Virus record (IMG/VR): IMGVR_UViG_3300023053_000001
Coordinates: 192,001-256,000 of that record
Direction: 5' to 3' (one strand)
Source: a virus
Lineage: Duplodnaviria > Caudoviricetes
Length of the DNA stretch: 64,000 nucleotides
Part shown: positions 7,593 through 42,139 of the stretch, one piece after another
Layout: each line of letters starts with the position of its first letter
How positions within the stretch are numbered: position 1 is the stretch's first letter
Made by a program: the position numbers and the translations under genes
The notes under the pieces: model-generated
Databases searched by the model: none
Seen by the model: only the letters and a program-made list of their open reading frames with translations
Told to the model about the DNA's origin: nothing

Positions 7593-9686
7593 TTAAGCCG
7601 CGCTCGTCTCCAGGTCCGACTTGCGGTGCATGGCCACGGTGTACTGGCCCACGGTCACCATGTTCGGCGCGTAGATGTGCAACTTGCAGCTGTAGCTGTA
7701 GCCACGCTGCGAGTCAGCCTTCGTGTAGAAGGACTGCGGCACGATCGTGAAGCGGTTGCCGAAGCGGGAGGTGCGCATGTCGTCTTCCAGGAAGCCGTTG
7801 AGTTCCTTGACAACCTGGTCCTCGGTCAGCTTGCTGTTGCCGGTGATGGCGCGCCAGCTGCGCAGGCAGGCCTTCACACCTTCGATGGCCACCCACATGT
7901 TGATCGAGGAGTTCAGCACGGAGCTGTCGTCGTCGTAGGCGGTCTGCACGGCGGGGTAGAAGTACGACATGTGATCGAAGGACTGCACCCAGATCAGGCC
8001 GTTCTCCCAGTCCTGCTTGCGCGCGTTGGCCGGGCGCCAGGTGTTGTTGATGTCGCGGAACAGCGTCACGCGCTTGTTGCCTTCCTGGTCGTAGGCCAGC
8101 GCCTCGTTCCAGGTGCCGGTGGCAGCGCCCATGTAGTCCGAAGTCTTCACGGCCAGCTGATAGGACAGCGGCAGCAGCTTCTTGTACGGGTTGCTGATGA
8201 GCACGCCCGACTGGGCATGGATCATCACGCGAGCAACCTTGGTGCCGTAGAAGACCGACTCCGGGTAACCGGCGGCCACGGCGCGCAGGGCGACGGCCAT
8301 CGAGTCATCGGCGCTGTCGGTGTTCTGCGGCAGGGCCACGTCCTGCGTGGCAACGACCAGGCCGATGTCCGGGCGCTTGAGCACGTTGAACATGGCCTTC
8401 TTGGTTTCCAGGCTGTAGCCCGGGTCCCACACGGCCGAGACCGGGTAGCGGAAGGGGTCATGCAGCGGGTAGCTCGGGCTGGCCCACTTGTTGAACTCTT
8501 CACGCACGGCGGTGTCGAAGGCAGGCGCCGACATGGTGCCGTCGCTACCACCGGCAGCGTACAGGGTGCTGTTCTCGTTCAGCAGCACGCCGCCGTCGGC
8601 CGGGCCCAGCAGCTGGAAGGCCGCGTAGGGAACGCCATCGGTGTTGGTCGCGCTGAAGATGTTGACCAGGTGCAGCCACTCGCTGTCTTCGTCGATGGTC
8701 AGCACGTCCGGATGCAGGATGCCCTGCGGCGCTTCGGCTTCGCCGACCATCGCCAGGACTGCTTCGAGGTTGTCCTCGTAGACCTTCAGCTTGTGGAACG
8801 GACCGTACTGGTTCGGAACGCCCGGGGTGCCGATGTTCTCGTAGCCCGGCAGCAGCACGTCTTCGATGGACAGCAGCTGGTCGGTGCCCGCTGCGACCTG
8901 GTCGGGTTTCAGGGTCATGTCCAGGTACTGCGCGCCACCCAGGGTTTCCACCTGCTGGCTGGTGCTGTTGGCATCGGCGCGGGTGGTGAGCTGGACGCGG
9001 TACAGGTACGCCTTGATCTGCTCGACCAGGCTGTCGTTGAGCGCGTCGGCGCTGGAGGTGGTCGGCGCCCAGAAGCGCAGGCCGAAGTTGTTGCCGCGTG
9101 CGCCACGGAACGGAACCTGCAGGTCCAGGATCGGGTACTGGATCGACTGCTCATCGGTCGAGGAGACGATACCGCCAACCTTCTGGGTCATCGCGCCGAA
9201 GGCGGAGTCTTCGGTCAGGGTGACCTTCCAGTCGTTGAGCACCCAGCGGGCCTTGTAGCCAGCGATCTTGGTGCCGGTCGGGATCTTGTTGCCGGCCTGA
9301 TCGCGCTTGAACGAGCCATCGGGCATACGCTCATACAGCGGGATCTCTTCGGCCACGATGTCCAGCGACAGCAGCAGGCGCGCGGTGGTTGCATCCGCCG
9401 GCACGATGCGCTTGGTCTGCACGGTCTGGCGGGCGCGGAACACGTCCAGGAAGGCCGTTGCGTGGTTGTAGTACGGCTTGCGCACATTGAAGGTGTCGGC
9501 ACCGTACGTATCGACGATGGCGTCACCGCTCAGCAGCAGGGTGTCTTCCGAACCCCACTGTGCGTAGATGTAGCACAGCGGCAGGTGCGTCGGGACCGGG
9601 GTGGTCTCATACACCGGGGTCGTGCCGCTCAGATCCTGGATGCCCAGGATAACGGCACGCGGGAAGGCGTTGTTGATTGCGTTCAT
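7593..9686 (-). CDS. contractile tail sheath protein (phiKZ gp29-like)
   Basis: 697 aa; N-terminal PRAVILGIQDLS..HLPLCYIYAQWG, C-terminal F.SFYTKADSQRGYSY; divergent from the virion/terminase operon. Confidence 0.85.
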   Translation of the reverse strand: MNAINNAFPRAVILGIQDLSGTTPVYETTPVPTHLPLCYIYAQWGSEDTLLLSGDAIVDTYGADTFNVRKPYYNHATAFLDVFRARQTVQTKRIVPADATTARLLLSLDIVAEEIPLYERMPDGSFKRDQAGNKIPTGTKIAGYKARWVLNDWKVTLTEDSAFGAMTQKVGGIVSSTDEQSIQYPILDLQVPFRGARGNNFGLRFWAPTTSSADALNDSLVEQIKAYLYRVQLTTRADANSTSQQVETLGGAQYLDMTLKPDQVAAGTDQLLSIEDVLLPGYENIGTPGVPNQYGPFHKLKVYEDNLEAVLAMVGEAEAPQGILHPDVLTIDEDSEWLHLVNIFSATNTDGVPYAAFQLLGPADGGVLLNENSTLYAAGGSDGTMSAPAFDTAVREEFNKWASPSYPLHDPFRYPVSAVWDPGYSLETKKAMFNVLKRPDIGLVVATQDVALPQNTDSADDSMAVALRAVAAGYPESVFYGTKVARVMIHAQSGVLISNPYKKLLPLSYQLAVKTSDYMGAATGTWNEALAYDQEGNKRVTLFRDINNTWRPANARKQDWENGLIWVQSFDHMSYFYPAVQTAYDDDSSVLNSSINMWVAIEGVKACLRSWRAITGNSKLTEDQVVKELNGFLEDDMRTSRFGNRFTIVPQSFYTKADSQRGYSYSCKLHIYAPNMVTVGQYTVAMHRKSDLETSAA

Positions 9687-9898
9687 GAATTCAAGCTCCT
9701 AGGAACTGTACGACCTGTGAACCAAAACCGCCATGTCGTATCCATACGCCTAAGCGGTCTGGTCGAGATTTTGGCTGGCTTATGCTATAGCAAAATGGAG
9801 TGATGCCGCGCATCATAATAATTACTTCAGAAAATGATGCACAGTGGCTTCACAGCTGCAGCTGCGAAACACATCAACTTTTAAAACGGTGAGTAGCC
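9687..9898. promoter_or_regulatory. divergent AT-rich late promoter region
   Basis: AT-rich gap between divergent structural operons with TATG on both strands (phiKZ late promoter core); a 4-mer is weak evidence. Confidence 0.4.
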
Positions 9899-10816: not shown

Positions 10817-13411
10817 ATGTCGAACGATTACCTCGTAGGGCATGCGGTTCGCAACGCATGGTGCAACCCGCCCCAAGACCTGCAGGTGATCCTCAAGCCG
10901 GCACGCATCAGTTTCCCCAGTGGCGCTCGCGGGACGGTGGATCATTCGTGGTCCACCATTCCTCTGCCCACTGCGCAGGATCTGTATCACGTCTACCAGA
11001 TCGGTCAGGTCAACCCGGTACTGCTGGGGCTGACTCCGGGCCGGATGGTCTGGCGCAAGCTTTCCTCTGTGATGAACAGCGAGAACTTGGTCGCCGATGT
11101 CTATGTGGCCAATGGCCTGCATCTGCATCGCGCTGAGTGCTGGGTGGTTTACACCGAGGAGCGCAATCTGCTGCTGGCCGTCAAGGACACCAAGCTGGCT
11201 CCGCTGAACAAAGAGCCGTTGTATCTGCGCCTGTACTCCAATGCGTACTTCGATTCGGTTCGAGCACGTGGTGAAGCCCAGGCCGTGTACACCAACTCGG
11301 TCATCGTCACCGGTGCGACCCAAGCGCTGACCTTCCAGAACGAATACCGACTGCAGCAGGCCAAGCACGGCTTGACCACGCTGTACGTCAACGGTGTCAT
11401 CATGGACAGCTTCCTGCCCACGCAGGTGGCCGTTGGTGACGTGCTGGAATACGTCTATGATTCCACCGTTAAGCAAGTGGTGGAGTTCCCGATCAAAGAC
11501 CTGCTGTACTTCAACTCGATCAAGGACGCCAAGGCCAAATACCTGCTGCATTACACCGCAGCGCAGGCCAAGGGTGAGATGATCGACTACCGTGATGACA
11601 TCGACGTCTATCTGGTGCGCAAGTTCACTCGTGGTACGAACACCCAAGCCTTTGAGGGGGTGTACTACCACAAGAACAGCGATGATGCCTTCCGTCAGCT
11701 GACCCACCGCGATTACTCGCTCACTGTGCCGTATGTGCAGGCATTGGCCGACGCACGTGCCGCATGGGGTGGTAAGGTGGCCGGTCTGACGGTACGTTTG
11801 CACATCCGCGATGCCGGTTACTCCCGTCCGCTGATCCATGAGCATTCGCGCATCAAGGAGCTGTACAAGCTCCCGCACAACGAGATCATCCGTGCCATGC
11901 ACGGTACCGACTCGACGGTGGATGTGTGGAAGGCGGTCAATCTGGAGAACTCCGATTACATCCGTGTGATGGATTCGCTGTACAGCCAGTTGAACCGCAC
12001 CATGATTCAGAGCGCCTACGGTTACAACGCCGTATCGCTGCTGGCCGGTGAGTCGCCGCTGCAGGTCAAGAACGTACACGGCCGTCGTCAGGTTTCCCTG
12101 CCCTACGGGTTGCAGGAGAACTCCACGATCTATGAGTACAATGCCCAAGGCGTCCTGCTCGGGTTCTACGTGCACAAGACCGGTCCGGAGTACGTGCCCT
12201 ACAACACTGCCTGTACGCTGGTGGAAGGAATCGTGGGTCTGGGTAATTACACCGCCTCCACGTATTTCGGCGGCGTGGACGTCGCCATCGATCCGAAGTT
12301 CAACTATCGTTTCTATCGCACCCCGCGCCGGGCCGGTAAACCGGACCAGACGCAGTGGGAAGATGTGACGGGTAACGATCAGGTCTACACCATCATTGAC
12401 AACAAGGTGGTGTGGTATCACGACACCTCGCGCTGGTTCACCGCCGTGCGTTCGGATGAACGCTTCTTGGCGTATGAGCGTACGCTGACCAGTGACAATG
12501 GCCTGCTGGACTTCTACATCGACGGCGAGGATGAATTCCCCGCCGGTGCAGCCCATGGCATCTTCTACATCCCGCTGGGTAAGCTCGATCTGTGGCTCAA
12601 CGGTCGAGCCATGATCGAGGGACTGGACTATGTGATCCAGTGGCCGCGCATCGTGGTGTGCAACAAGCGTTACCTGATCCCGGGCAACTCGCAGAAGCTG
12701 ACCGTTCGCGGTACCGGTTTCTGCAACTCGAATCTGGAGCGCGACACGCCCGCTGAGAACGGCTTCGTCAAGCATGGCATGCTTTCGCGCAATGGTCGTT
12801 ACGACATCCGCGATGACAAGGTGCAGCGTATCGTCATTGACGGTCGTACCTATCATCGCAGCGCGTTGAAGTTTGCCGAAGAGCACAAGGGCATCCAAGT
12901 CTCGGCGCAAGCTGAAGGCTCGCCCTACATCGTGGAGAACATCATCGTACCGCTGCGCTCGCTCGGTAATGATGAGGACTACGTGTATCGTGACCGCTCG
13001 TTGGCGGTGGACAAGTCGGTGGGCGATTGGTTGAACCTGCGCCTGCCCGAACCGGAGATCAAAGACCCGGTGATGGTCCCCAACAACAAGTACCCGATCT
13101 ACAGCCCGTTTGCCTCCACGATTCTGTATGACCTGATGAACGGTCGTCTGAGTACGGAAGCCTTCCGTGGCTACTACAGCGATCGCGAACTGCGTGCGGT
13201 GCTGCAGCGCTTTGAGTACCTGCTCGACTTCGACCCGTGCTTCCGTGAAGGACTGGATCTGCGTTACATCGCTATCCATGCCCACAACGCGCTGATCGAA
13301 TACGAGGTGGACATCTACCAGTGGCGCATGCTCTCCCGTGCCGTTCGCATTTACTTGCAAGATCGTGTGGACCTTACCCAGTTCCTTTCGATCAAGAAAA
13401 CGCTGATCTAA
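10817..13411 (+). CDS. virion structural protein (phiKZ gp27-like)
   Basis: 864 aa; NAWCNPPQD start, LDLWLNGRAMIEGLDY; synteny. Confidence 0.75.
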   Translation: MSNDYLVGHAVRNAWCNPPQDLQVILKPARISFPSGARGTVDHSWSTIPLPTAQDLYHVYQIGQVNPVLLGLTPGRMVWRKLSSVMNSENLVADVYVANGLHLHRAECWVVYTEERNLLLAVKDTKLAPLNKEPLYLRLYSNAYFDSVRARGEAQAVYTNSVIVTGATQALTFQNEYRLQQAKHGLTTLYVNGVIMDSFLPTQVAVGDVLEYVYDSTVKQVVEFPIKDLLYFNSIKDAKAKYLLHYTAAQAKGEMIDYRDDIDVYLVRKFTRGTNTQAFEGVYYHKNSDDAFRQLTHRDYSLTVPYVQALADARAAWGGKVAGLTVRLHIRDAGYSRPLIHEHSRIKELYKLPHNEIIRAMHGTDSTVDVWKAVNLENSDYIRVMDSLYSQLNRTMIQSAYGYNAVSLLAGESPLQVKNVHGRRQVSLPYGLQENSTIYEYNAQGVLLGFYVHKTGPEYVPYNTACTLVEGIVGLGNYTASTYFGGVDVAIDPKFNYRFYRTPRRAGKPDQTQWEDVTGNDQVYTIIDNKVVWYHDTSRWFTAVRSDERFLAYERTLTSDNGLLDFYIDGEDEFPAGAAHGIFYIPLGKLDLWLNGRAMIEGLDYVIQWPRIVVCNKRYLIPGNSQKLTVRGTGFCNSNLERDTPAENGFVKHGMLSRNGRYDIRDDKVQRIVIDGRTYHRSALKFAEEHKGIQVSAQAEGSPYIVENIIVPLRSLGNDEDYVYRDRSLAVDKSVGDWLNLRLPEPEIKDPVMVPNNKYPIYSPFASTILYDLMNGRLSTEAFRGYYSDRELRAVLQRFEYLLDFDPCFREGLDLRYIAIHAHNALIEYEVDIYQWRMLSRAVRIYLQDRVDLTQFLSIKKTLI

Positions 13412-32279: not shown

Positions 32280-33269
32280 ATGCAACAGCAGAACATCTCC
32301 ACCGACCGCGGCCGCGTCCGTCTGTACGCCTGCGGTGGCTTCGGTGTCAACATCGGTTCTTACTTCGATGGTTTCAAGGGCGAGATCGAACCGGGCTATT
32401 CCTCCGTGGAGCCGGCCTACATCGATACCTCCCGTTCCAACTTCAGCAAGGCCGGCCTGAGCGCCGACCAGGTCTTCGTGCTGGAAGGCGCCGATGGTTC
32501 GGGCGCGATCCGTTCGGAGAACCATCCCGAGATCCTGAAGAACATCCCCAACATCCTGCAGCAGTTCAAGCCGCTGGACTTCAACATCGTGGTCTTCTCC
32601 GGCGCCGGCGGTTCCGGTTCGGTGTTCGGTCCGCTGATCCTGTCCGAGCTGCTGGCCCGTGGCCTGCCGGTTATCGCCATCGTGGTCGGTGCCGATGATT
32701 CGGCCAAGGCTGCCGAGAACACCCTCAAGACCCTGCAGGGCCTGGAGCACACCGCCGAGAAGCGCGGCCTGCCGGTGGCGATGTACTACCGCCAGAACGA
32801 CAACGGCGACAACAAGCGTTCGTCCATCGACAAGGACAGCCAGTACGTGATCAGCATGATCTCGATCCTGTGCTCGCGCCAGAACGATGAACTGGACTCC
32901 AAGGACATCCAGAACTGGGTGCAATTCACCAAGGCCACCTCGGCCGAAGCTCGCCTGGCGCGCCTGATGATCTGCGATTCGACCAACGTCTCCCAGATCG
33001 CCGATCCGATCGCCATCGCCAGCCTGCTGGCCAGCCCGGATGACGCCGGCCGTGAGATCGTGCCCGAGTACAGCTGCACCGGTTATCCGGAAGCCAAGGC
33101 CGTCCACAGCCTGCTGCCGCTGCACCTGGTGCTGACCTTCGAAGGCATCCCGGCCATCGCCAAGCGCCTGACCTCGCGCATCGCCGAGCTGGAAACCCAG
33201 CGCAAGGCCCGCGTGCGCCACGACTCGCTGCTGGGCAATGCCCAGACCGACGGCGACCTGGTCCTGTAA
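32280..33269 (+). CDS. phuZ: PhuZ phage tubulin
   Basis: YACGGFGVNIG T1 loop, FSGAGGSGSVFGP tubulin signature, RQNDELDSKD T7 loop; strong codon bias. Confidence 0.95.
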   Translation: MQQQNISTDRGRVRLYACGGFGVNIGSYFDGFKGEIEPGYSSVEPAYIDTSRSNFSKAGLSADQVFVLEGADGSGAIRSENHPEILKNIPNILQQFKPLDFNIVVFSGAGGSGSVFGPLILSELLARGLPVIAIVVGADDSAKAAENTLKTLQGLEHTAEKRGLPVAMYYRQNDNGDNKRSSIDKDSQYVISMISILCSRQNDELDSKDIQNWVQFTKATSAEARLARLMICDSTNVSQIADPIAIASLLASPDDAGREIVPEYSCTGYPEAKAVHSLLPLHLVLTFEGIPAIAKRLTSRIAELETQRKARVRHDSLLGNAQTDGDLVL

Positions 33270-33804: not shown

Positions 33805-34005
33805 ATGAACCAGTTTGTCTGCAATCAGTGCTCGTGCATGGAAGTGACCGATCTGGTCTATCCGTGCCTGCCCTCTCTGAAGGAGGAGCAGCTGTGCTCC
33901 CTTTGCCGTACCGGCGTGTGGCATAACCGGTTCGAGCGTGAGTTCTACGACCCCACGAAACACGTGGCGATCAATCGCCCCAATGAAGGACTGAGCTTGG
34001 GATGA
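33805..34005 (+). CDS. small zinc-finger protein (66 aa)
   Basis: CNQC...LCSLC..GVWHNRF; AGGA RBS. Confidence 0.75.
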   Translation: MNQFVCNQCSCMEVTDLVYPCLPSLKEEQLCSLCRTGVWHNRFEREFYDPTKHVAINRPNEGLSLG

Positions 34006-34535
34006 ACCAAGAAATCTTGCACGATCTTGCTGAAGCCCCTCCTTTCTTCGCTCGCGAAGAGGACGGCCACATCAACTGGCGCCCCCACACCGTCAACGAG
34101 GAACAGTCTGCATCGTTCTCGGTCCCGGTGTCTTACTCGCAGGTCTTTCCTCAAGAGGACGTAGACCGCCTAGGTAAGTTGGGCGAAACCCCCGACACCC
34201 TAATGACCCACGCCTTCATGGCGTTGGAGGAAGGTCGCGGGATCAAGCCAGAAGGTGAGGACATGATTGACTTTGCTGTCAGTGGTGTCTGTAACAACAT
34301 CATCAACCGTTTGTTTGATGAGGAGGACCAAGGAACCGATGACATTTCCGCCTCGGATATGGTCAACGAGTTCATGCCCCAACTGGTTCCCATGATCGAA
34401 CGTACGGTGCGCATGACGGAGACGTACTTCCCCATGCCCGAACCGCAGCCTGACGACGATGGATTCATCATGGATGCCAGTGTGACCAACTGCAATGACC
34501 GCACTGTGGTGAAGGTCACGTGGGCTAAGGGATGA
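34002..34535 (+). CDS. acidic hypothetical protein, array member 1
   Basis: ATGA coupling; LGKLGETPDTLM motif; terminal beta-hairpin pattern. Confidence 0.7.
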   Translation: MNQEILHDLAEAPPFFAREEDGHINWRPHTVNEEQSASFSVPVSYSQVFPQEDVDRLGKLGETPDTLMTHAFMALEEGRGIKPEGEDMIDFAVSGVCNNIINRLFDEEDQGTDDISASDMVNEFMPQLVPMIERTVRMTETYFPMPEPQPDDDGFIMDASVTNCNDRTVVKVTWAKG

Positions 34536-34957
34536 GCGAGTCCGTACGACTTTCCATTCCGGTTGGGGAAAGTGACTGGATCACCACCGAAGATCGCGGC
34601 ATGTTAGCCGATCTTCGATTGGACCCGAACCTAGCCATCGAGTACGGGTTGCATTTCTGGGAGGACTGCTATCTGTCCGGTCTGGAAAAGCGACCCGACT
34701 TGTTCTACGACAAGATGGTCGGCGAAGTGGCTGAGATGTTGGACCCCATCGACGGGCACGCTGAGAGCTACGAGCACCAGACCCGGTTCGCTCAACGGGC
34801 AGATCAGTTTGCCTGCATGATGGGCCGACATGCCCAGATCCTGTCCAGTCATTTGAGTCCCCGCGTGTTCCATTCCCTCGAAACGCGCCCAGAAAGCATC
34901 ACGCTGTTGAAGATCAACGACCATCGTACGATCGTGCAAGTGAACTACGAGGACTGA
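34532..34957 (+). CDS. hypothetical protein, array member 2
   Basis: ATGA coupling; LADLRLDPNLAIEYGL motif. Confidence 0.7.
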   Translation: MSESVRLSIPVGESDWITTEDRGMLADLRLDPNLAIEYGLHFWEDCYLSGLEKRPDLFYDKMVGEVAEMLDPIDGHAESYEHQTRFAQRADQFACMMGRHAQILSSHLSPRVFHSLETRPESITLLKINDHRTIVQVNYED

Positions 34958-34994
34958 GCCACTCCCCTTCACAGGGGAGTGGCTCTATGCCGTC
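34956..34994 (+). terminator. hairpin plus TATGCCGTC
   Basis: GAGCCACTCCCCT/AGGGGAGTGGCTC stem directly followed by TATGCCGTC. Confidence 0.7.
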
Positions 34995-35087
34995 TATTTC
35001 GCTCTCTGAGGCGCTTGCAGAGTAAAAAGCTACCAATCTACCTCTTCTTATGTAGTACGCCTGTGCCGCCTCTTACGGACTTTCAGA

Positions 35088-35105
35088 CATATATCATCCA
35101 AGAGT
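35088..35105 (+). promoter_or_regulatory. putative early-type promoter motif CATATATCATCCAAGAGT
   Basis: Matches 1657-1674 at 15/18; upstream of an 8-gene run. Confidence 0.6.
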
Positions 35106-35124
35106 AGGCTATCCTGGAAATCCC

Positions 35125-35625
35125 ATGACCCACATTCCTCTGGTTGAAGCTCGTTACACGTTCAGCCTACGCGATCATTTCGAAGGCTGTCTCCCCCTAC
35201 TCCACAAATTGATGGAGAGACGCCTTCCTGAAATCTCCCGTATCAATGCCGTGATGTGGAAACGCCACGGCCTGTACGGAGGTACTCGCTACGATGCTCG
35301 ACGCTACCGTCGGATCTACGAGCCGGCCTCCGATGCAGATGACACGCTTCTGATGCAGATCTACGTGGCATTCATCATGCACTACATCACCCATGACTGT
35401 TATACCGTGATCGGTACGGCGATGGAGGCGATGTGGATGGATCTGATTTCGCGAGACGGCGAGTTCCGTAACGCAACCCTTCCTTTCGAGGACATGGCCC
35501 TGAGCCCGCTGTACTGGATTACCTCATCGCACTTGAGTGACCAGCTACGCACGATCTCTCTGGATCAGAATCTCGTATTTCGCATGTCTTACTTGGTGGC
35601 ACCCCCACCATTACCACCTTTCTGA
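35125..35625 (+). CDS. hypothetical protein, array member 3
   Basis: ORF after the promoter motif; YTFSLRDHF N-terminal strand. Confidence 0.65.
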   Translation: MTHIPLVEARYTFSLRDHFEGCLPLLHKLMERRLPEISRINAVMWKRHGLYGGTRYDARRYRRIYEPASDADDTLLMQIYVAFIMHYITHDCYTVIGTAMEAMWMDLISRDGEFRNATLPFEDMALSPLYWITSSHLSDQLRTISLDQNLVFRMSYLVAPPPLPPF

Positions 35626-35636
35626 GGGACTCTGCA

Positions 35637-36491
35637 ATGTCTTCGCTCAACGTTCAGTACATCGTGCCGCTCAACCATTTTGCAGAGCATCTGCAGATGG
35701 CCTTGCAGCGCCTCGGTGTCCAGCGCAAAGTTCCGTTCTTGGAAAAACAGTTGGAAAATGCGCCGGCGTATGAGATCGTCTATGCGATGTTCAAGTTGAA
35801 CCTGGAAGAGCGCATGCTCTGGATCAACAGCGACTGGCGCAACTGGTGGGAAGTCATGGAAGACGTGATGGGACGGCACATCTCCGGATGGATGTCGGAA
35901 AGTCAGTATCGTCCGGTGCACCGCAAGGGCGCCAAGGCAGTGGACGCCGAACTCACCGCCGAGGATGAACGCATCATCGACTACTACGATGCCATCTACA
36001 CCGACGTGCTCGATCCACTGTGGCTGATGATGGAAAACATGATCGGTCAGCAGATGGGTATTGCTGAGAACACCTGGGACATGTTCACCCTGGAACGTCG
36101 CGATACCTATCAGGTGGAAAAGTCGACCACCGAAGAAGAGGTCTGGATTCCCGACCGCATTGCCACGGTAGCCATCGACGGCAGTTCCACCCCGCAGCTG
36201 CGTCCGGTTCAGATCAACTCGCCCGTGTCCGGTCAGGTCCAGATCCGTCAGATCCCCATCATGATCCAGAAGCTGGATCGGATCGATCTGAAGCTGAGCA
36301 ACATGGGTGACTTCCGCATTCGCGAGTGGGAAGAGAACATCAAGTCCGGTAAGTGGAAGACCCGCGCCAAGGAAAACATGGATGTCCATTCGCTGGCACC
36401 GGATCATCTCTACGGTGAAGCCAATCGCGGTTCGCTGGCTGAGATTCGTCGCGCCGGTAAGACCGGTGGTATCCGTACGCTGGGCAAGTAA
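35637..36491 (+). CDS. hypothetical protein (284 aa), long array member 4
   Basis: GAGGG RBS; YIVPLNHF..LQRLGV motif; internal beta-rich insertion and C-terminal extension. Confidence 0.75.
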   Translation: MSSLNVQYIVPLNHFAEHLQMALQRLGVQRKVPFLEKQLENAPAYEIVYAMFKLNLEERMLWINSDWRNWWEVMEDVMGRHISGWMSESQYRPVHRKGAKAVDAELTAEDERIIDYYDAIYTDVLDPLWLMMENMIGQQMGIAENTWDMFTLERRDTYQVEKSTTEEEVWIPDRIATVAIDGSSTPQLRPVQINSPVSGQVQIRQIPIMIQKLDRIDLKLSNMGDFRIREWEENIKSGKWKTRAKENMDVHSLAPDHLYGEANRGSLAEIRRAGKTGGIRTLGK

Positions 36492-36493
36492 CC

Positions 36494-36904
36494 ATGTCGG
36501 ACTATCGCTGGCGAGTCAGTGAATTGATGGTCCTGATCTGGAACGTATTGGAGCACCATCCCTATTCCCACGAATTCGGCGTACATGCAGTCTACGTACT
36601 GCAAGCGGCCGTAGAGCAATTCGGGGTAGAGTTCACCAAGCCGGTGAACCGCACACCTGAAGATTACCTGATGCGGATACCTGGAATGGACCCCGCTGCG
36701 GCAGCACGTGTACAGGGCGATCTGATGACCGCCTTGCGCATTACCCTGCCGTGGACGGAAGGACCACCATTGGACGAGGAACGTCTGGTGGGTACGATCA
36801 GTGGACCGATCCTGTCTGTCATGGTCGCCGAACGTGAAAATCTATCGACCCTGGCAGATCAGAGTGACAGCTACATTCCCCGTCGCCATCGAGAACTTGT
36901 CTGA
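36494..36904 (+). CDS. hypothetical protein, array member 5
   Basis: 2-nt gap to the upstream gene; array membership inferred mainly from size and secondary-structure pattern. Confidence 0.7.
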   Translation: MSDYRWRVSELMVLIWNVLEHHPYSHEFGVHAVYVLQAAVEQFGVEFTKPVNRTPEDYLMRIPGMDPAAAARVQGDLMTALRITLPWTEGPPLDEERLVGTISGPILSVMVAERENLSTLADQSDSYIPRRHRELV

Positions 36905-36907
36905 TTC

Positions 36908-37390
36908 ATGAGACACTACGTCATTATCCCCTTACGAGAGTTGCCTGCGGCGTATCACCACCATGCCCGGGCGCTGCGTCGTTTGGGGATAGAGCCGCGA
37001 GGGCTGATCCGCTATGGCATCCTTTACGGAGCCAATCGGTATCTGTGGACAGCCCTCAATGATCCGCTCAATGACGTTTATCGTGAGGTCATCCGATCTC
37101 CCCACGTCATTGATGATCCTGAGTTGACCGCTGACATCAACGCGACCTTGGGCGGCACCTATCAGGAAATCTGCGGGTACCTCCAGCGTGACATCATGTC
37201 AACCCAAACCAACCTGCTGCGCCATGAGGTTCAGCAGCTGATGCACTCGTGCTTGGATCACATCCAACTCATTGATCAGTATGTACTCCCGTTCATCTTT
37301 TCGCTGACCGGGTCGTCGTCAACATTGCGCTACGAAAAAGCTATCAGCGATGACAGCATTCTAGTCAGCGTAGAGTCCCCTCTCATTTGA
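36908..37390 (+). CDS. hypothetical protein, array member 6
   Basis: YVIIPLRE..LRRLGIEPRGLIRYGI motif. Confidence 0.7.
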   Translation: MRHYVIIPLRELPAAYHHHARALRRLGIEPRGLIRYGILYGANRYLWTALNDPLNDVYREVIRSPHVIDDPELTADINATLGGTYQEICGYLQRDIMSTQTNLLRHEVQQLMHSCLDHIQLIDQYVLPFIFSLTGSSSTLRYEKAISDDSILVSVESPLI

Positions 37391-37400
37391 AGATACGAAC

Positions 37401-37775
37401 ATGCTGCTCATGGTCCCCATGCCGATTCCTCACGAGGAGTTGGCCAATCTCGAGAAAAACACGCTGGAGAAATACGGCATCTCCTTCGATGAATTGATGC
37501 GCACCGCGATCACCTCGTGGGAGTTCATGAGTAGCGATCGCTTGCCCACCATGGATGACGTGGTGTTGGTGAGTGTCGATGCTGAACTCTTCCACGAGTG
37601 GTACGAAGCATCCCGCCGTTTGACTGACATCACCCATCAGCTGGGACGAGCGATGTACCGCATGCTCGAACCGGGCTTGCAGGGAACGTTTGGTTCTGCC
37701 GATGAGATTGACATCCGTTACATCAAATCCGTACCCAACGGTATCCTGCTGGATATGCGTGGACGGGACGACTAG
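37401..37775 (+). CDS. hypothetical protein, array member 7
   Basis: LEKYGISFDELM motif; terminal hairpin YIKSVPNGILLDM. Confidence 0.7.
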   Translation: MLLMVPMPIPHEELANLEKNTLEKYGISFDELMRTAITSWEFMSSDRLPTMDDVVLVSVDAELFHEWYEASRRLTDITHQLGRAMYRMLEPGLQGTFGSADEIDIRYIKSVPNGILLDMRGRDD

Positions 37776-37783
37776 GAACCTCC

Positions 37784-38236
37784 ATGCACCGTTTCCCTCC
37801 CCACAGTCGCTACATCCGACTCATCCTGCCCACGCGGGATGCGTTTGAGGAGTACGCCACTGTTGAGCACCTGCTGGCGAAGATCAACATCACTCCCCGA
37901 CACCTTATCGAACAGGTGGTGTTGTACATTGCCCAGAGCAGTGGTCCGGAAGCCTCGCGGATCTTGGCGTTGCAATCGGCCAAGCTGTACGCACTGCCCT
38001 ATCAGGCAGTGACGACGCTGGTGTCTGACAACGTCTACAACTCGCGTGACTTCATGGCATTGGAGCAGCGCGACCAACACGACATCAGTATCGTCGTGGA
38101 GAACATTGTCTTCCGCTCATACCTCCACCTGACGCAGCTGTTCGAGATGTTCTCGATCACCGATGCGCAGCAGGAGATGATGAGCTTTTCCGGCTGGCAG
38201 GGATACGACCTCATCGTCGAGATCCCCAATACGTAG
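37784..38236 (+). CDS. hypothetical protein, array member 8
   Basis: AGGA RBS; LILPTRD..LAKINITPRHLI..WQGYDLIVEI. Confidence 0.7.
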   Translation: MHRFPPHSRYIRLILPTRDAFEEYATVEHLLAKINITPRHLIEQVVLYIAQSSGPEASRILALQSAKLYALPYQAVTTLVSDNVYNSRDFMALEQRDQHDISIVVENIVFRSYLHLTQLFEMFSITDAQQEMMSFSGWQGYDLIVEIPNT

Positions 38237-38246
38237 GAACTGTCCT

Positions 38247-38705
38247 ATGCAAAACGTCATTATCCCCACGCGGGATGTCATCGAACCCCATCTTCCGATG
38301 TGGTCGCAGATGCCGCCCGCGCTGGGGCTGGGACCGGTGATTACCACACTGGTCCAACTGATCTTCAACGGTAACAACGCAGGCGATCAATGTCGGGCGA
38401 ACTTCTACATTCCGGATGTCATGTACGTCTTCATCGAATTCCTGCTCACTCCGGACATGCGCAAGTTTTTGAACGACACCTATACCGACGAACAGGTTCA
38501 AGCATGGATCTCTACGTTGTTCACGATCGTTCCTGGCTTGGCCAATCAACTGGTAGCCCTGTGCCCGCCCATCGTTAATTCGGTGGTGGGTTCCTCCTAT
38601 GTCTCCAATGTGGGGTATGCGGAGATGCGGGGATTGGATGTGATGTTGTTTGTGGAAACCTTTGACATGGGAGCCAAGCATGACCAGCGATACGCTGCCG
38701 GGTAA
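38247..38705 (+). CDS. hypothetical protein, array member 9
   Basis: AGGA RBS; VIIPTRD...MRGLDVMLFV. Confidence 0.7.
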   Translation: MQNVIIPTRDVIEPHLPMWSQMPPALGLGPVITTLVQLIFNGNNAGDQCRANFYIPDVMYVFIEFLLTPDMRKFLNDTYTDEQVQAWISTLFTIVPGLANQLVALCPPIVNSVVGSSYVSNVGYAEMRGLDVMLFVETFDMGAKHDQRYAAG

Positions 38706-39057
38706 AATCCAGTTGGGATCAGGTGCTGCTATTGAGACCTACCTAACTGAGATGGTCCCGGCAAATTCGGGTTTTTATGACCTCGGTATGGTTGGACAGG
38801 CCGTAGTGAACCATCTGGCCGGTAGCTTCCAGCCCCACCCCAATCGGGTGGCTGGACTTCATCAGGAGCTGTATCGCTTCTTCGCACCTCACGATCACAT
38901 CTACGTCGATCGAGCACTGCGGTTACTGGTGGAGCAGTACGATGCTGATTTCTTGGCGTTGCGCCGAACCTTCCCGGCCGGCTGGGATCTGCAAGGCCGA
39001 TTCCGCTACTACTTCTTCAAATGGTCCGGGGACATCATGGTGATCGCGTTGCGCTAA
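38680..39057 (+). CDS. hypothetical protein, array member 10
   Basis: GGAG RBS before ATG 38680; terminal hairpin FFKWSGDIMVIAL. Confidence 0.65.
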   Translation: MTSDTLPGKIQLGSGAAIETYLTEMVPANSGFYDLGMVGQAVVNHLAGSFQPHPNRVAGLHQELYRFFAPHDHIYVDRALRLLVEQYDADFLALRRTFPAGWDLQGRFRYYFFKWSGDIMVIALR

Positions 39058-39095: not shown

Positions 39096-39512
39096 ATGAG
39101 CATCGTAGCACCTACCGATCTCCCGTTTGGCGCCGTAGTCAGCTTTGAGGTCTACCCGGCCCAGATGCTCGGCAACGAATTCAACAACGCCAAAGTCCTG
39201 GCCATCGTCGACGCCGACACGGCCAAGTTCTGGATCGACCCGGTCGCCCAGCACGCCAACGTCTATGCGACCCTGCCGCCGAACACGGTCCCGGACAAGT
39301 TCGACAGCTACCTCTACGTCAAGCTCAAGCTGGCCAGTGGCATGACCACTGCCGTGGGCCTGCCGTGGATTCGCAAGGAGAGCCTGAAGATTGCCACCAC
39401 CCGCAAGGTGCTCATCACCGTGGAGAACGTCTCCCCGGAAGATGATGGCAAGCTGCTCAAGGCACTGTCGTCCAACGGCTTCACAGCAGCAGCAATCCAA
39501 GACATTCAGTAA
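39096..39512 (+). CDS. conserved phiKZ gp49-like protein (SH3-like beta fold)
   Basis: VVSFEVYPAQMLG..HANVY..P..PD..YLYVKL..VGLPWI, recalled core family just upstream of the DNA polymerase. Confidence 0.7.
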   Translation: MSIVAPTDLPFGAVVSFEVYPAQMLGNEFNNAKVLAIVDADTAKFWIDPVAQHANVYATLPPNTVPDKFDSYLYVKLKLASGMTTAVGLPWIRKESLKIATTRKVLITVENVSPEDDGKLLKALSSNGFTAAAIQDIQ

Positions 39513-39617: not shown

Positions 39618-39653
39618 GGCGCCGGGTTACCCCGGCGCCTCTTTTATGCCGCC
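39618..39653 (+). terminator. hairpin plus U-tract plus TATGCCG
   Basis: GGCGCCGGG-TTAC-CCCGGCGCC-TCTTTTATGCCGCC. Confidence 0.75.
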
Positions 39654-39709: not shown

Positions 39710-42139
39710 ATGAAGCATTTCGTCAAAGAGCTGGACCACTACAAACGTGATTACGACCTGCTCGGCACGTACGTGGAAGACCAGGCCAGCCACATGCACC
39801 TGATGACCGGCCAGCCGCTGGAGGTCTGTCGTGACTTCGTCCGTAAGACCATCGGGCCGGGCGGTCGTCGTGAGTTGGTTATCCCCGTAGCGCATGTCTT
39901 GGTGCGCAACAAATTCGGCGATCGTGAACGCAAAGCCATTCCGTTTGATCGGCTCTTGGCTGACATTCGTGAAAAGCGCGAAATCCTGTCCCCGTCGCTG
40001 ACTGCCTATACCCATCCGGATGAACGGGTCTCGATTCTGGCAGAGTACATTCAAGGCAACTTGAAGAAGCGCAAGGAAGCCAAGCACGCCAAGTTCGTCG
40101 CTGAGATGAAGGGCGAAGCAGTGCTGGCAGCGATCTTTGAAGCGGCCCAGACCACGCTGAAGATCAAGAACAACTCCCTGTCCGGTGCGCAGTGCTCGCC
40201 GTACACGGTGCTGTGGAATAAGTCGGCGCACTCCACGCTGACTTCGACTTGCCGTACGGCCACCTCCTACGGTAATGCGAACAACGAGAAGTTCCTGATG
40301 GGTAACCGGCACTATTGGTCGCCGGAGATCACCAAGGCCAACATCATCTCGATCATCAACCACAGCGATTACGAGGCCATTGCCCGGACCATGCAGCGTC
40401 ATGGCCTGAAGGCACCGACGGTCGAACAGACCATGGCCTGCATCACCCGCTCCACCGAGTTCTACTGGCGCAGCCCCAAGGCGATGGAAGCCATCCAGGA
40501 ACTGGTGAGTAACCTCAGTGACCTGCAGCGCTCGGCATTTGTCTTCACCTCCGATCTGTACCACCTGGCGCAGGTCAATCCCGAGTTCGTTCGTGCCTTC
40601 TTCACTCGCATGTCCATCCGTTCCACGGAAAACCTGCTGGTGCCGGATGCGGACTTCTATGTCAACGAGCAGGATGACAACCTGCGTGCATTCGTCTCGA
40701 TGCTGTGCGCCCGCCAGTTGCGCGGTGGCAACATGCAAGAGGCGTTGGTGCGTGCACTGGTCTATCCCTTCGGTGTCCCTGAGCAGGTGCTCGACGATGC
40801 TGATCGGTACTACGATCTCAACGTTGCCGAGAAGATGTCCGGCTTCATCAGCATGCTGCGCGGTAAGCGTAAGGAAGAGGCTGTTGAGAAGCTGAAGAAG
40901 GAATGTCGCGAGCTGTGGAAGATCCTGTACTGGGAACGCCACGGTCTGGAAGAGGCCAAGGTCAAGAAGTATCGTGGGAACTTCCCGGTTTCCGACGGTA
41001 CTGAAGCCAACGACTATGCCATCATCGGCGCGATGACGCAGCAGGTGATGTACGCACTGGACGGCTATGAGGATTTGATCCAGAGTTTCTGGACCACGCC
41101 CAATCTGCCGGCTTCTGTGTACTACATGCCGTCCATCATCCGACGTACGGCGATCACCTCCGATACCGACTCCACGATCTTCACGGTGCAGTATTGGACC
41201 GAGTGGTACGTAGGCAAGCTGGACTTCACCGACACCTCCATTGCCGTGGCCAACACGGCGGTGTATCTGGCCGGTCAGCTGATCCGACACATCCTGGCCA
41301 CGTTCTCGGCCAACATGGGTGTGGCGCAGAAGGACCTGAACCGCCTGTCGATGAAGAACGAATACTACTTCCCGGTGTTCGTCCTGACAGCGCGTGCCAA
41401 GCACTACTTCGCCTACATCTCTGCGCAGGAAGGTAACGTCTTCAAGGAAATGAAGATGGAGATCAAGGGCGTGGGCTTGCGTAACTCCAATGTCCCGCCG
41501 CGCCTGACCAAGGCCTCGCACAAGCTGATGCGCCACCTGATGGACTCGGTGATGGCAGGTGAGGCGATCTCGATCAAGCAGGTGTTGCGTTACATCGCCA
41601 AGAAGGAAATCGAAATCCGCGATTCGGTATTTAGCGGTAAGTTCGACTACCTCAAGTCGATGAACATCAAGTTGCGTGAGTCCTATTCGGAAACGGCTAA
41701 GTCCACCAACTACGATCACTACTTGCTGTGGGAATCGGTGTTTGCTCCCAAGTACGGCTCTGCAGGTGCACCGCCGTACCGGGCCATCAAGATCCCGATG
41801 GAAACCGACTCCCCGGCCAAGATGAAGACGTGGCTGGATTCGATCAAGGACCGCTCCATCGCCAAGCGCATGGAGGAGTACCTGAAGTTGAAGGGCAAGA
41901 AGTCTGGCATGAAGCAGTTGATGTTGCCAGAGACCATCGTCGGCAGTATCGGTATCCCCGAAGAGATGTTGGGTGCGGTGAATATTCGCGGTACGATTGC
42001 ACAGGTCATGGAAGGGTTCTACATCATCCTCGAATGCCTGGGTTACTATCGTGCCAATGACTACAACACCAAGCTGGTCTCTGACGATGAATGGTTGCTC
42101 GATCCGGAATGGGAATTCGGCGAGTTGAACCTGGACTAA
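39710..42139 (+). CDS. split family-B DNA polymerase, phiKZ gp50-like subunit
   Basis: Motif B KIKNNSLSGA, motif C TSDTDSTIF, SMKNEYYF, EIKGVGLR; exonuclease and motif A absent, as in the phiKZ split enzyme. Confidence 0.9.
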   Translation: MKHFVKELDHYKRDYDLLGTYVEDQASHMHLMTGQPLEVCRDFVRKTIGPGGRRELVIPVAHVLVRNKFGDRERKAIPFDRLLADIREKREILSPSLTAYTHPDERVSILAEYIQGNLKKRKEAKHAKFVAEMKGEAVLAAIFEAAQTTLKIKNNSLSGAQCSPYTVLWNKSAHSTLTSTCRTATSYGNANNEKFLMGNRHYWSPEITKANIISIINHSDYEAIARTMQRHGLKAPTVEQTMACITRSTEFYWRSPKAMEAIQELVSNLSDLQRSAFVFTSDLYHLAQVNPEFVRAFFTRMSIRSTENLLVPDADFYVNEQDDNLRAFVSMLCARQLRGGNMQEALVRALVYPFGVPEQVLDDADRYYDLNVAEKMSGFISMLRGKRKEEAVEKLKKECRELWKILYWERHGLEEAKVKKYRGNFPVSDGTEANDYAIIGAMTQQVMYALDGYEDLIQSFWTTPNLPASVYYMPSIIRRTAITSDTDSTIFTVQYWTEWYVGKLDFTDTSIAVANTAVYLAGQLIRHILATFSANMGVAQKDLNRLSMKNEYYFPVFVLTARAKHYFAYISAQEGNVFKEMKMEIKGVGLRNSNVPPRLTKASHKLMRHLMDSVMAGEAISIKQVLRYIAKKEIEIRDSVFSGKFDYLKSMNIKLRESYSETAKSTNYDHYLLWESVFAPKYGSAGAPPYRAIKIPMETDSPAKMKTWLDSIKDRSIAKRMEEYLKLKGKKSGMKQLMLPETIVGSIGIPEEMLGAVNIRGTIAQVMEGFYIILECLGYYRANDYNTKLVSDDEWLLDPEWEFGELNLD

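Follow-up and report, generated by a model that had tools for sequence, protein, structure and literature searches.

A conserved array of ten small genes between PhuZ and the DNA polymerase

The window analysed here, a 64,000-nucleotide stretch of the Caudoviricetes record IMGVR_UViG_3300023053_000001, belongs to a 190-kb IMG/VR virus contig that is about 71% complete, and carries a tandem array of ten small genes (G1 to G10, Table 1) between the genes for PhuZ and a divergent DNA polymerase. The gene order is PhuZ, a small gene, a cysteine-rich gene of 66 amino acids (aa; Zn66), the ten array genes, SH3DP, the polymerase and a minus-strand gene, which in the relatives examined is followed by chimallin. 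The same order was found in phiKZ (gp39 ... gp49, gp50, gp52, gp54), RAY, RTH11, LucasX, Xoo-sp14 and FLC9, and the array is embedded in this conserved PhuZ/SH3DP/divergent polymerase/chimallin block.

Table 1. Positions in the window of the array genes, their neighbours and two intergenic elements
Feature	Position	Strand	Description
PhuZ	32280-33269		Left of array
Zn66 (66 aa)	33805..34005	+	Cys-rich, zinc-ribbon-like; operon head; outside the paralog family
G1 (177 aa)	34002..34535	+	G2 paralog; 33-aa N-terminal extension; probable remote family member
G2 (141 aa)	34532..34957	+	G1 paralog; probable remote family member
Hairpin	34958..34992	+	Perfect 11-bp stem, 4-nt loop, directly after the G2 stop; then TCTATGCCG
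Conserved intergenic block	35022..35099	+	Upstream of G3: GTAAAAAGCTAC, TACCTnTTCnTATGT, then CAGACATATATCATCC
G3 (166 aa)	35125..35625	+	Conserved positional gene; possible family member
G4 (284 aa)	35637..36491	+	Family domain, conserved GD(F/Y)RIxEW extension and lineage-specific insert
G5 (136 aa)	36494..36904	+	Strand-helices-hairpin in the model; flexible tail with D(Y/W)xP motif
G6 (160 aa)	36908..37390	+	Family member (VIIPLRE ... ISDDSILVSV)
G7 (124 aa)	37401..37775	+	Family member; slowest-evolving, 91% identity to L039
G8 (150 aa)	37784..38236	+	Reference family member (LILPTRD ... WQGYDLIVEI)
G9 (152 aa)	38247..38705	+	Family member (VIIPTRD ... MRGLDVMLFV)
G10 (125 aa)	38680..39057	+	Family member; slot directly upstream of SH3DP
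SH3DP (138 aa)	39096-39512	+	Right-hand boundary gene; phiKZ gp49 ortholog; outside the paralog family
Divergent polymerase	39710-42139		Family-B enzyme

Loci carrying the array were collected by metagenome and protein searches. They comprise L039 and the partial loci L024/L040, which are close to the window, the intermediate L038 (270 kb), and L019 and L004, whose polymerases are 65% and 48% identical to that of the window. Among named phages, those with the polymerase closest to that of the window are RTH11 (51%) and LucasX (45%), both of Xanthomonas; other nucleus-forming jumbo phages come next. The array had no blastn match in 50,697 phage records, and a related-locus search with SH3DP alone returned no relatives; a protein search with an alignment of G8, G9 and G10 returned 10 proteins and led to L038 and L039.

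All ten array members are real genes. An earlier note, made from the sequence of the window, had described ten tightly coupled genes, nine of 124-177 aa and one of 284 aa, and the list of open reading frames (ORFs) bears out this count, the sizes and the coupling. Zn66 and G1, and G1 and G2, overlap by ATGA; beyond the G2/G3 intergenic region the gaps measure 2-11 nucleotides (nt), and G9 and G10 overlap by 26 nt in different frames, an arrangement kept in L039, L038, L024 and L019. The gene calls of L038 and L039 indicate that G10 most likely starts at the ATG at 38680 and not at the TTG at 38650. One-to-one orthologs in identical order are present in L039, L038 and L019, and part of the array in L024/L040, while L004 has no separate G1. 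By tblastn and jackhmmer each gene of the window was found once, with the order kept, and independent gene calling in L038 and L039 recovered the same ten between the zinc gene and SH3DP. Orthologs of G2 were found in L039, L038, L019, L004, LucasX and RTH11; those of G3 in L039, L038 and L019, with positional equivalents in L004, L022, Xoo-sp14, FLC9, LucasX and RTH11.

The array is under purifying selection yet changes fast. Against L039, the ratio of nonsynonymous to synonymous substitution rates (dN/dS) is 0.09-0.37 for the array genes, and their proteins are 27-55% identical to those of L038, compared with 76-79% for PhuZ and the polymerase. Rates are uneven even among neighbours, identity to L039 falling from 91% for G7 to 50% for G4 and 45% for G5. 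The GC content at third codon positions (GC3) is 0.60-0.79 in the array, compared with 0.87 in PhuZ, 0.82 in SH3DP and 0.78 in the polymerase. The weaker codon bias that had been ascribed to the array is visible in this lower GC3, while the low expression read from it is suggested by composition only.

Small, unannotated and rapidly diverging proteins (27-55% identity where the polymerase keeps 79%), with neither Pfam nor PHROG annotation and with GC3 below that of the flanking core genes, might also be a set of fast-evolving effectors for host takeover or against host defence, each directed at a different host factor and lying in the replication block by chance. We consider this very improbable: copy number and order are constant across relatives with 45-65% polymerase identity, there are no expansions or losses in single lineages of the kind typical of an arms race, and dN/dS is well below 1. 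Moreover, the family described below reaches RAY and a distant 209-kb chimallivirus contig, and phiKZ gp43, which is related to G4 and G5, took no insertions in laboratory culture.

Paralogy of the array genes

Searches of Pfam and PHROGs with all ten proteins gave nothing above noise, and the sole match in a plain BLASTP comparison among them was G6-G8 (E = 0.013). Jackhmmer searches were run against 1,472 ORFs, including every own-genome ORF of at least 70 aa on both strands, with an inclusion threshold of 1e-3. The search seeded with G10 converged, recovering G8 (E = 2.6e-26) and G9 (E = 2.3e-13), so that G8, G9 and G10 were united at E values of 1e-13 to 1e-26; seeded with G8, it recruited G9, G10 and G6 orthologs. 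None of the own-genome (190-kb) ORFs outside the array passed the inclusion threshold. A family hidden Markov model (HMM) run on the same genome found G9 at E = 1.1e-35.

The all-against-all hhalign comparison that had been proposed as a check was run in local mode with ortholog profiles of five to six sequences. The ten best of 66 pairs all lay within the array and were colinear from end to end (G1-G2, G8-G9, G2-G7, G7-G8, G8-G10, G2-G6, G6-G8, G6-G9, G6-G7 and G9-G10). The G1-G2 pair reached P = 3.8e-6 (residues 34-176 against 2-141, colinear) and G8-G9 P = 2.9e-4, and G2 was aligned end to end with G7 (P = 0.0018) and G6 (P = 0.0038). When profiles of six families were compared with the seventh, P values were 6e-8 to 6e-4 for G1, G2 and G6-G10 (G7, P = 2.4e-5; the family profile minus G6 against G6, P = 1.9e-6). 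Nine non-array small-protein families from the same loci served as controls, with Zn66 as a further negative control; since none of the 108 control comparisons gave P < 0.01, these P values can be taken as honest.

The family extends well beyond the window. An HMM of G8, G9 and G10 searched against 1.84 billion cluster representatives retrieved 113 proteins at E ≤ 1e-3, all of them full-length relatives of 110-221 aa except for a 1168-aa protein with a local match. The resulting 116-representative profile, which is independent of G4, G6 and G7, matched these three at P = 6.9e-5, 2.5e-8 and 2.8e-4, respectively, and a second family profile matched G4 at P = 5.1e-4. The deep family HMM also matched genes at the G2, G4, G6 and G7 positions of other lineages, as well as RAY gp218 (E = 0.0059): the G6 orthologs of L019, L004 and Xoo-sp14 at E values of 2e-7 to 1e-8, the G7-position genes of L004, RTH11 and L022 at 2.5e-5 to 5e-4, and the RTH11 ortholog of G2 at 5.8e-4. 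A joint profile of G1 and G2 aligned colinearly with the G6-G10 profile (P = 0.014) and with the 116-representative profile (P = 0.015). Among more distant relatives, a 209-kb chimallivirus contig carries a family member (P0117) directly upstream of SH3DP.

The motif strings on which the earlier note had built its case are all present in the translations. A strict version of the N-terminal motif at the end of strand 1, h-h-h-[PD]-[TLS]-[RKG]-[DEQH], occurs four times in the six frames of the 190-kb genome, and three of the four matches are the N-termini of G6, G8 and G9. The motif is degenerate in G1, G2, G3, G5 and G7; the G4 orthologs of L004 and L022 begin with ILPTKD and ILPTRD, and the G10 ortholog of L019 with LVLGTRDAV.

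On these sequence comparisons, the N-terminal domain of G4 and G6, G7, G8, G9 and G10 are homologous and form one family. G1 and G2 are by the same measure paralogs of each other, and they are probably remote members of this core family. That at least six to eight of the genes constitute a single family appears highly probable.

Predicted fold of the family

Two of the genes were folded with AlphaFold2, G8 on a 24-row alignment and G5 on one of 15 rows. The G8 model (predicted local distance difference test, pLDDT, 83.8; predicted template modelling score, pTM, 0.77) consists of a strand (residues 10-15), six helices and two further strands (134-139 and 142-148), with a helix-loop-helix around ...INITPRHLI.... 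In the G5 model (pLDDT 81.4), a strand (residues 3-7) is followed by helices, two strands (96-103 and 106-113) and a flexible tail. The four-part architecture anticipated from the translations (N-terminal strand, helix-glycine-helix motif, helical middle and terminal hairpin) is thus reproduced exactly in the G8 model and broadly in that of G5. Across the family, the N-terminal strand ends in a P-T-R-D-like turn, the core of five to six helices is variable, and the turn of the C-terminal hairpin is W-x-G-x-D-like; the conserved positions lie mainly in the strand and the hairpin, the variable ones in the helical part.

The models were compared through structure searches of BFVD (best 50 matches per model) and not by direct superposition. 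Among these best 50 matches for G8 and for G5, every named organism but one is a chimallivirus, including EL, PhiEaH1, RSL2, Eowyn, Ea35-70, RAY, Psa21, PhiPA3, Noxifer, Goslar and pTD1; for about half of the entries no organism is given. Fifteen of the 50 best targets are common to both models. For G8, a template modelling (TM) score of 0.70 was reached by entries of 153 and 139 aa, the lengths of its LucasX and Xoo-sp14 orthologs. Judged by length and by successive accession numbers, several of the entries could come from adjacent array genes of a single phage, such as entries of 139 and 163 aa with consecutive accessions that fit Xoo-sp14 genes 205 and 206; these assignments are unconfirmed. 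A shape search of the ESM Atlas with G8 gave nothing above a TM score of 0.44, and structure searches with the models found no solved structure matching the family.

The domain appears specific to nucleus-forming jumbo phages (Chimalliviridae), and the family is an unrecognised one. G5 displays the family architecture in its predicted model only. For G3, the ESM Atlas model was unusable (pLDDT 0.35); by eye, the proteins encoded at its position begin with a strand and end in a hairpin. We infer that the same fold extends to G1, G2 and G5 as remote members, and possibly to G3.

G4, G5 and the phiKZ protein gp43

A jackhmmer search with phiKZ gp43 (357 aa) retrieved orthologs of G4, and hhalign placed G4 on residues 5-218 of gp43 (P = 6e-4). 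Both contain a GDxRIxxW motif, in which D225, R227 and W231 are invariant or nearly so, and the N-terminus of gp43, LIVLDTRHQ, corresponds to the family strand motif. The C-terminal 130 residues of gp43 matched G5 (P = 0.001 over 124 columns), and directly after the hairpin both share a terminal [GD]DY[LYI]P motif that is confined to the gp43 and G5 families and one unrelated family. The top BFVD matches of the G5 model were a 305-aa protein of Psa21 (E = 2.5e-4) and protein 039 of PhiPA3 (E = 1.6e-3), which we presume to belong to the gp43 family, the former by ORF length, the latter by length and gene number.

As G4 corresponds to the N-terminal half and G5 to the C-terminal half, gp43 is G4 and G5 in one chain, and the two genes together equal the single gene gp43. 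The phiKZ clade has one protein of 305-357 aa, whereas the window, L019, L038, L039, L004 and L022 have two adjacent genes in its place. Like G4 and G5, gp43 has no described function. G4 and G5 may work as a pair. Predictions of a complex between them scored 0.02, 0.38 and 0.33 in separate runs, with 0.14 for the control, and weigh on neither side as to binding.

Between gp42 and gp43, phiKZ (NC_004629, L018) carries a 142-aa ORF (11900-12328, + strand) with no RefSeq coding sequence. It is conserved in nine other phiKZ-like contigs (a BLAST cluster of 10) and is possibly an unannotated gene. A 129-aa protein of Psa21, of the same length as the ORF that represents the Psa21 contig in this cluster, is among the structural neighbours of the G5 model.

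At the gp43 position of RAY lies gp211 (L037, 5167-6456; 429 aa), in which hhalign detected a G6-like domain at residues 139-316 (P = 8e-5). This domain fits the weak match of G6 to PHROG 10904, and gp211 would be a second case of family domains fused into a larger protein. An early jackhmmer run had placed gp211 with the G6 family (E = 1e-28), a match that was not reproduced in the larger database, and only the hhalign value is retained.

Comparison with the phiKZ import genes

In the phiKZ import study, imp2 is orf47 (gp47) and imp4 is orf48 (gp48), and both lie within the PhuZ-to-polymerase interval of phiKZ, in agreement with the earlier note, which had placed import-screen genes at this location. 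Mutants of imp2 and imp4 have distinct, cargo-specific phenotypes, and Imp2 is required for the import of Nlp1 and is itself imported through Imp1 (phiKZ study); a later preprint calls Imp2 and Imp4 cargo-specific adaptors. Transposon data for phiKZ record no insertions in gp43, gp47, gp48, gp49 and gp50 and 6-11 in each of gp44, gp45 and gp46, so that the interval mixes required and dispensable genes.

Imp2 and Imp4 share several traits with the array genes: they occupy the same interval, from PhuZ to SH3DP and the DNA polymerase; they are small (127-178 aa) and have no Pfam family, phiKZ gp43-gp48 giving no match in Pfam; and by eye their chains begin with a strand, are helical in the middle and end in a hairpin. 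Immediately upstream of SH3DP lie Imp4 in phiKZ, G10 here, gp218 in RAY and P0117 in the distant contig. In contrast to the array family, which spans distant chimalliviruses, Imp2, Imp4 and Imp5 have been described as restricted to Pseudomonas phiKZ-like phages.

Deeply diverged multi-copy paralogs have a precedent in chimallivirus genomes, namely the inner-body/head proteins of phiKZ (gp92-97, gp153, gp162 and gp163; PF12699). Unlike the array proteins, these belong to the virion head, are larger, have a Pfam domain and are encoded at another locus, and they are partly redundant, several of them tolerating insertions.

Proposed adaptors of the phage nucleus and alternative readings

The reading that we favour, with a probability of roughly 0.4, is that the interval is filled by ancient paralogs, diverged and fixed in order, of a single small alpha+beta domain, and that these act as adaptors. 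Since distant relatives have a separate ortholog of every gene, with the order kept, the duplications are old and the copies not interchangeable; and as the duplications predate the split of the lineages and every copy has been kept, the copies are functionally distinct. Taken together with the conservation of the strand and hairpin and the location in the nucleus and replication block, this distinctness favours partner-specific adaptors. The conserved strand and hairpin would form a common structural or docking module, while the fast-evolving helical face would give each copy its own partner; as accessory or adaptor proteins in the module of phage nucleus and replication, the copies would be partner-specific and non-redundant.

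Eukaryotic karyopherin/importin adaptors offer a functional analogy, in that a common docking part combined with cargo-specific surfaces licenses nuclear entry. They have no sequence or fold relation to the array, and the barrier in the phage is a lattice of the chimallin protein. By analogy with Imp2 and Imp4 in phiKZ, the most likely role for the copies would be to license particular cargo for import through PicA/Imp1, a mechanism that we regard as possible and somewhat doubtful. The broader proposition that all the small genes between PhuZ and SH3DP in nucleus-forming jumbo phages, Imp2 and Imp4 included, derive from one ancestral domain and serve as cargo-licensing adaptors seems to us rather improbable. 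On this view the viruses would have invented the adaptor family themselves, and each of its roughly seven to ten fixed paralogs would admit a different set of cargo proteins through the chimallin shell by way of PicA/Imp1.

Several results weigh against the adaptor reading. Profiles of Imp2 and Imp4, each built from 11 sequences, gave P values of at least 0.1 (Imp2, against all window family profiles) and at least 0.14 (Imp4, against the window profiles), and neither was significantly similar to the deep family profile. Imp4 against the family representatives yielded only two short local matches of 7-8 bits, which we do not trust, and no gp47 or gp48 entry was recognisable among the best 50 BFVD matches of G8 and G5. 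As the Imp2 and Imp4 profiles have no significant match, what links them to the array is position and an architecture seen by eye, and the tie of the array to import is positional only. The adjacency of the polymerase suits a role in replication equally well, and the docking module, deduced from the pattern of conservation, may be purely structural. On the side of homology, comparison with family profiles gave P values of 0.12-0.51 for G3 and 0.21-0.41 for G5, which has no sequence link to G6-G10; BFVD matches at the level of paralogs had TM scores of 0.35-0.57 and weak E values, and the predicted fold relation between G5 and G8 is drawn from topology and common database neighbours.

These last results would also fit a different picture, in which the paralogs make up only a core (the N-terminal domain of G4, and G6-G10) and the genes interspersed with it (G1/G2, G3 and G5) encode unrelated small helical proteins whose common strand-helices-hairpin layout is easily reinvented. 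Against every family profile G3 and G5 stay at P values of about 0.2-0.5, the joint G1 and G2 profile reaches only 0.014-0.015, and the paralog-level structural matches are weak. Such a partial lack of homology is conceivable and, on balance, doubtful: G2 aligns end to end with G7 and G6 (P = 0.002-0.004), its RTH11 ortholog is detected by the deep HMM (E = 5.8e-4), G5 and G8 share 15 of their 50 best BFVD neighbours, all from chimalliviruses, the G3-position genes have one low profile value, against G4 (P = 0.004), and the controls were clean. Of the ten deeply diverged paralogs proposed by the earlier note, six stand firmly, two probably and one by predicted fold, and G3 is a possible member (P = 0.12-0.51). 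The note had singled out members 5 and 10 as least certain; this holds for G5, whereas G10 is among the most secure by jackhmmer, and on sequence the weak members are 3 and 5.

The paralogs could instead be subunits of one hetero-oligomeric machine associated with the replisome or the nucleus, made in fixed proportion from a translationally coupled operon and binding one another instead of separate cargos. Fixed copy number and order with one-to-one orthologs speak for such a machine, as do stops and starts that overlap or nearly abut, the fusion of the neighbours G4 and G5 in the phiKZ clade, the G6-like domain inside the 429-aa gp211 of RAY (hhalign P = 8e-5) and the proximity of SH3DP and the DNA polymerase. 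We nevertheless judge it unlikely, given that neighbouring phiKZ genes differ in essentiality, with insertions tolerated in gp44-46 and none in gp43, gp47 or gp48, that imp2 and imp4 mutants differ in their cargo-specific phenotypes, and that rates vary about five-fold between neighbours (identity to L039 of 91% for G7 and 45% for G5), which is unusual for an obligate co-complex.

We regard the family and its extent as solid; what its members do we infer. The earlier proposal of an unrecognised multi-paralog system stands in so far as there is an unrecognised, diverged tandem family that is syntenic across nucleus-forming jumbo phages; homology to Imp2 and Imp4 found no backing in the profiles. 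The proteins known to take part in cargo selection by the phage nucleus are, to our knowledge, limited to Imp1/PicA and a small number of helpers. The block that holds imp2 and imp4 in phiKZ contains, in other lineages, a fixed set of ancient paralogs with one phage-specific fold, and gp43, which phiKZ requires, joins two array members in one gene. About ten 'hypothetical proteins' per genome thereby become a single family, with a profile and two models for finding further members. If a common ancestral adaptor domain did exist, cargo-specific import adaptors would count among the old, central traits of the phage nucleus and not be a speciality of Pseudomonas phages; if the array is unrelated to import, it still constitutes an undescribed family of the nucleus and replication block across distant chimalliviruses.

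Intergenic elements and flanking genes

Compensatory changes preserve the stem of the hairpin after G2 in L039, L038 and L019, with TATG(G)CCG invariant, and the hairpin likely marks a transcript end or a processing site and divides the array in two. Upstream of G3, the block at 35022-35070 is invariant even in L019, whose flanking proteins are only about 25% identical; the CAGACATATATCATCC part is found in closer relatives only. Within the window, GTAAAAAGCTAC does not repeat beyond chance. The block is probably a promoter or leader of a G3-G10 unit. Together, the hairpin and the conserved block support two transcription units, Zn-G1-G2 and G3-G10. The earlier note had placed a promoter motif at 35088 that would drive the last eight genes. 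The split before G3 agrees with this, but the motif is not a recurring consensus: that at 35087-35099, which lies in the conserved intergenic block, shows no repetition beyond chance in the window, and its conservation, from 35087, is limited to closer relatives. Scans of the array for sigma-70 promoters and terminators were no richer than those of shuffled sequences.

A further hairpin at 39618-39648 closes the unit that ends with SH3DP. The tails of this hairpin and of the one at 34958-34992 read T(C)TATGCCG or TCTTTTATGC.

The zinc-finger gene said to head the array is a real, zinc-ribbon-like gene, as judged from its ORF and from orthologs at the same position in L019, L004, L022, LucasX and RTH11; Zn66 had no match in Pfam. 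SH3DP matches Pfam PF20287 (E = 3.9e-32; 110.9 bits against a gathering cut-off of 25), and a jackhmmer search with it gave 26 orthologs, including phiKZ gp49 and RAY gp219.

Between SH3DP and the polymerase, L004 has two extra genes (8446-9478; 224 and 121 aa), which indicates that this junction is an insertion hotspot in some lineages. At the same junction, the phiKZ-like metagenomic contig L007 carries tandem paralogs of 124 and 117 aa (9016-9390 and 9487-9840; hhalign P = 2e-50), found also in L006, L009, L017 and L032; phiKZ and the window have no counterpart there.

Records of the G8 protein come from 21 contigs, of which the largest measures 268 kb, and a fuller genome than the 190-kb record is therefore present in public assemblies.

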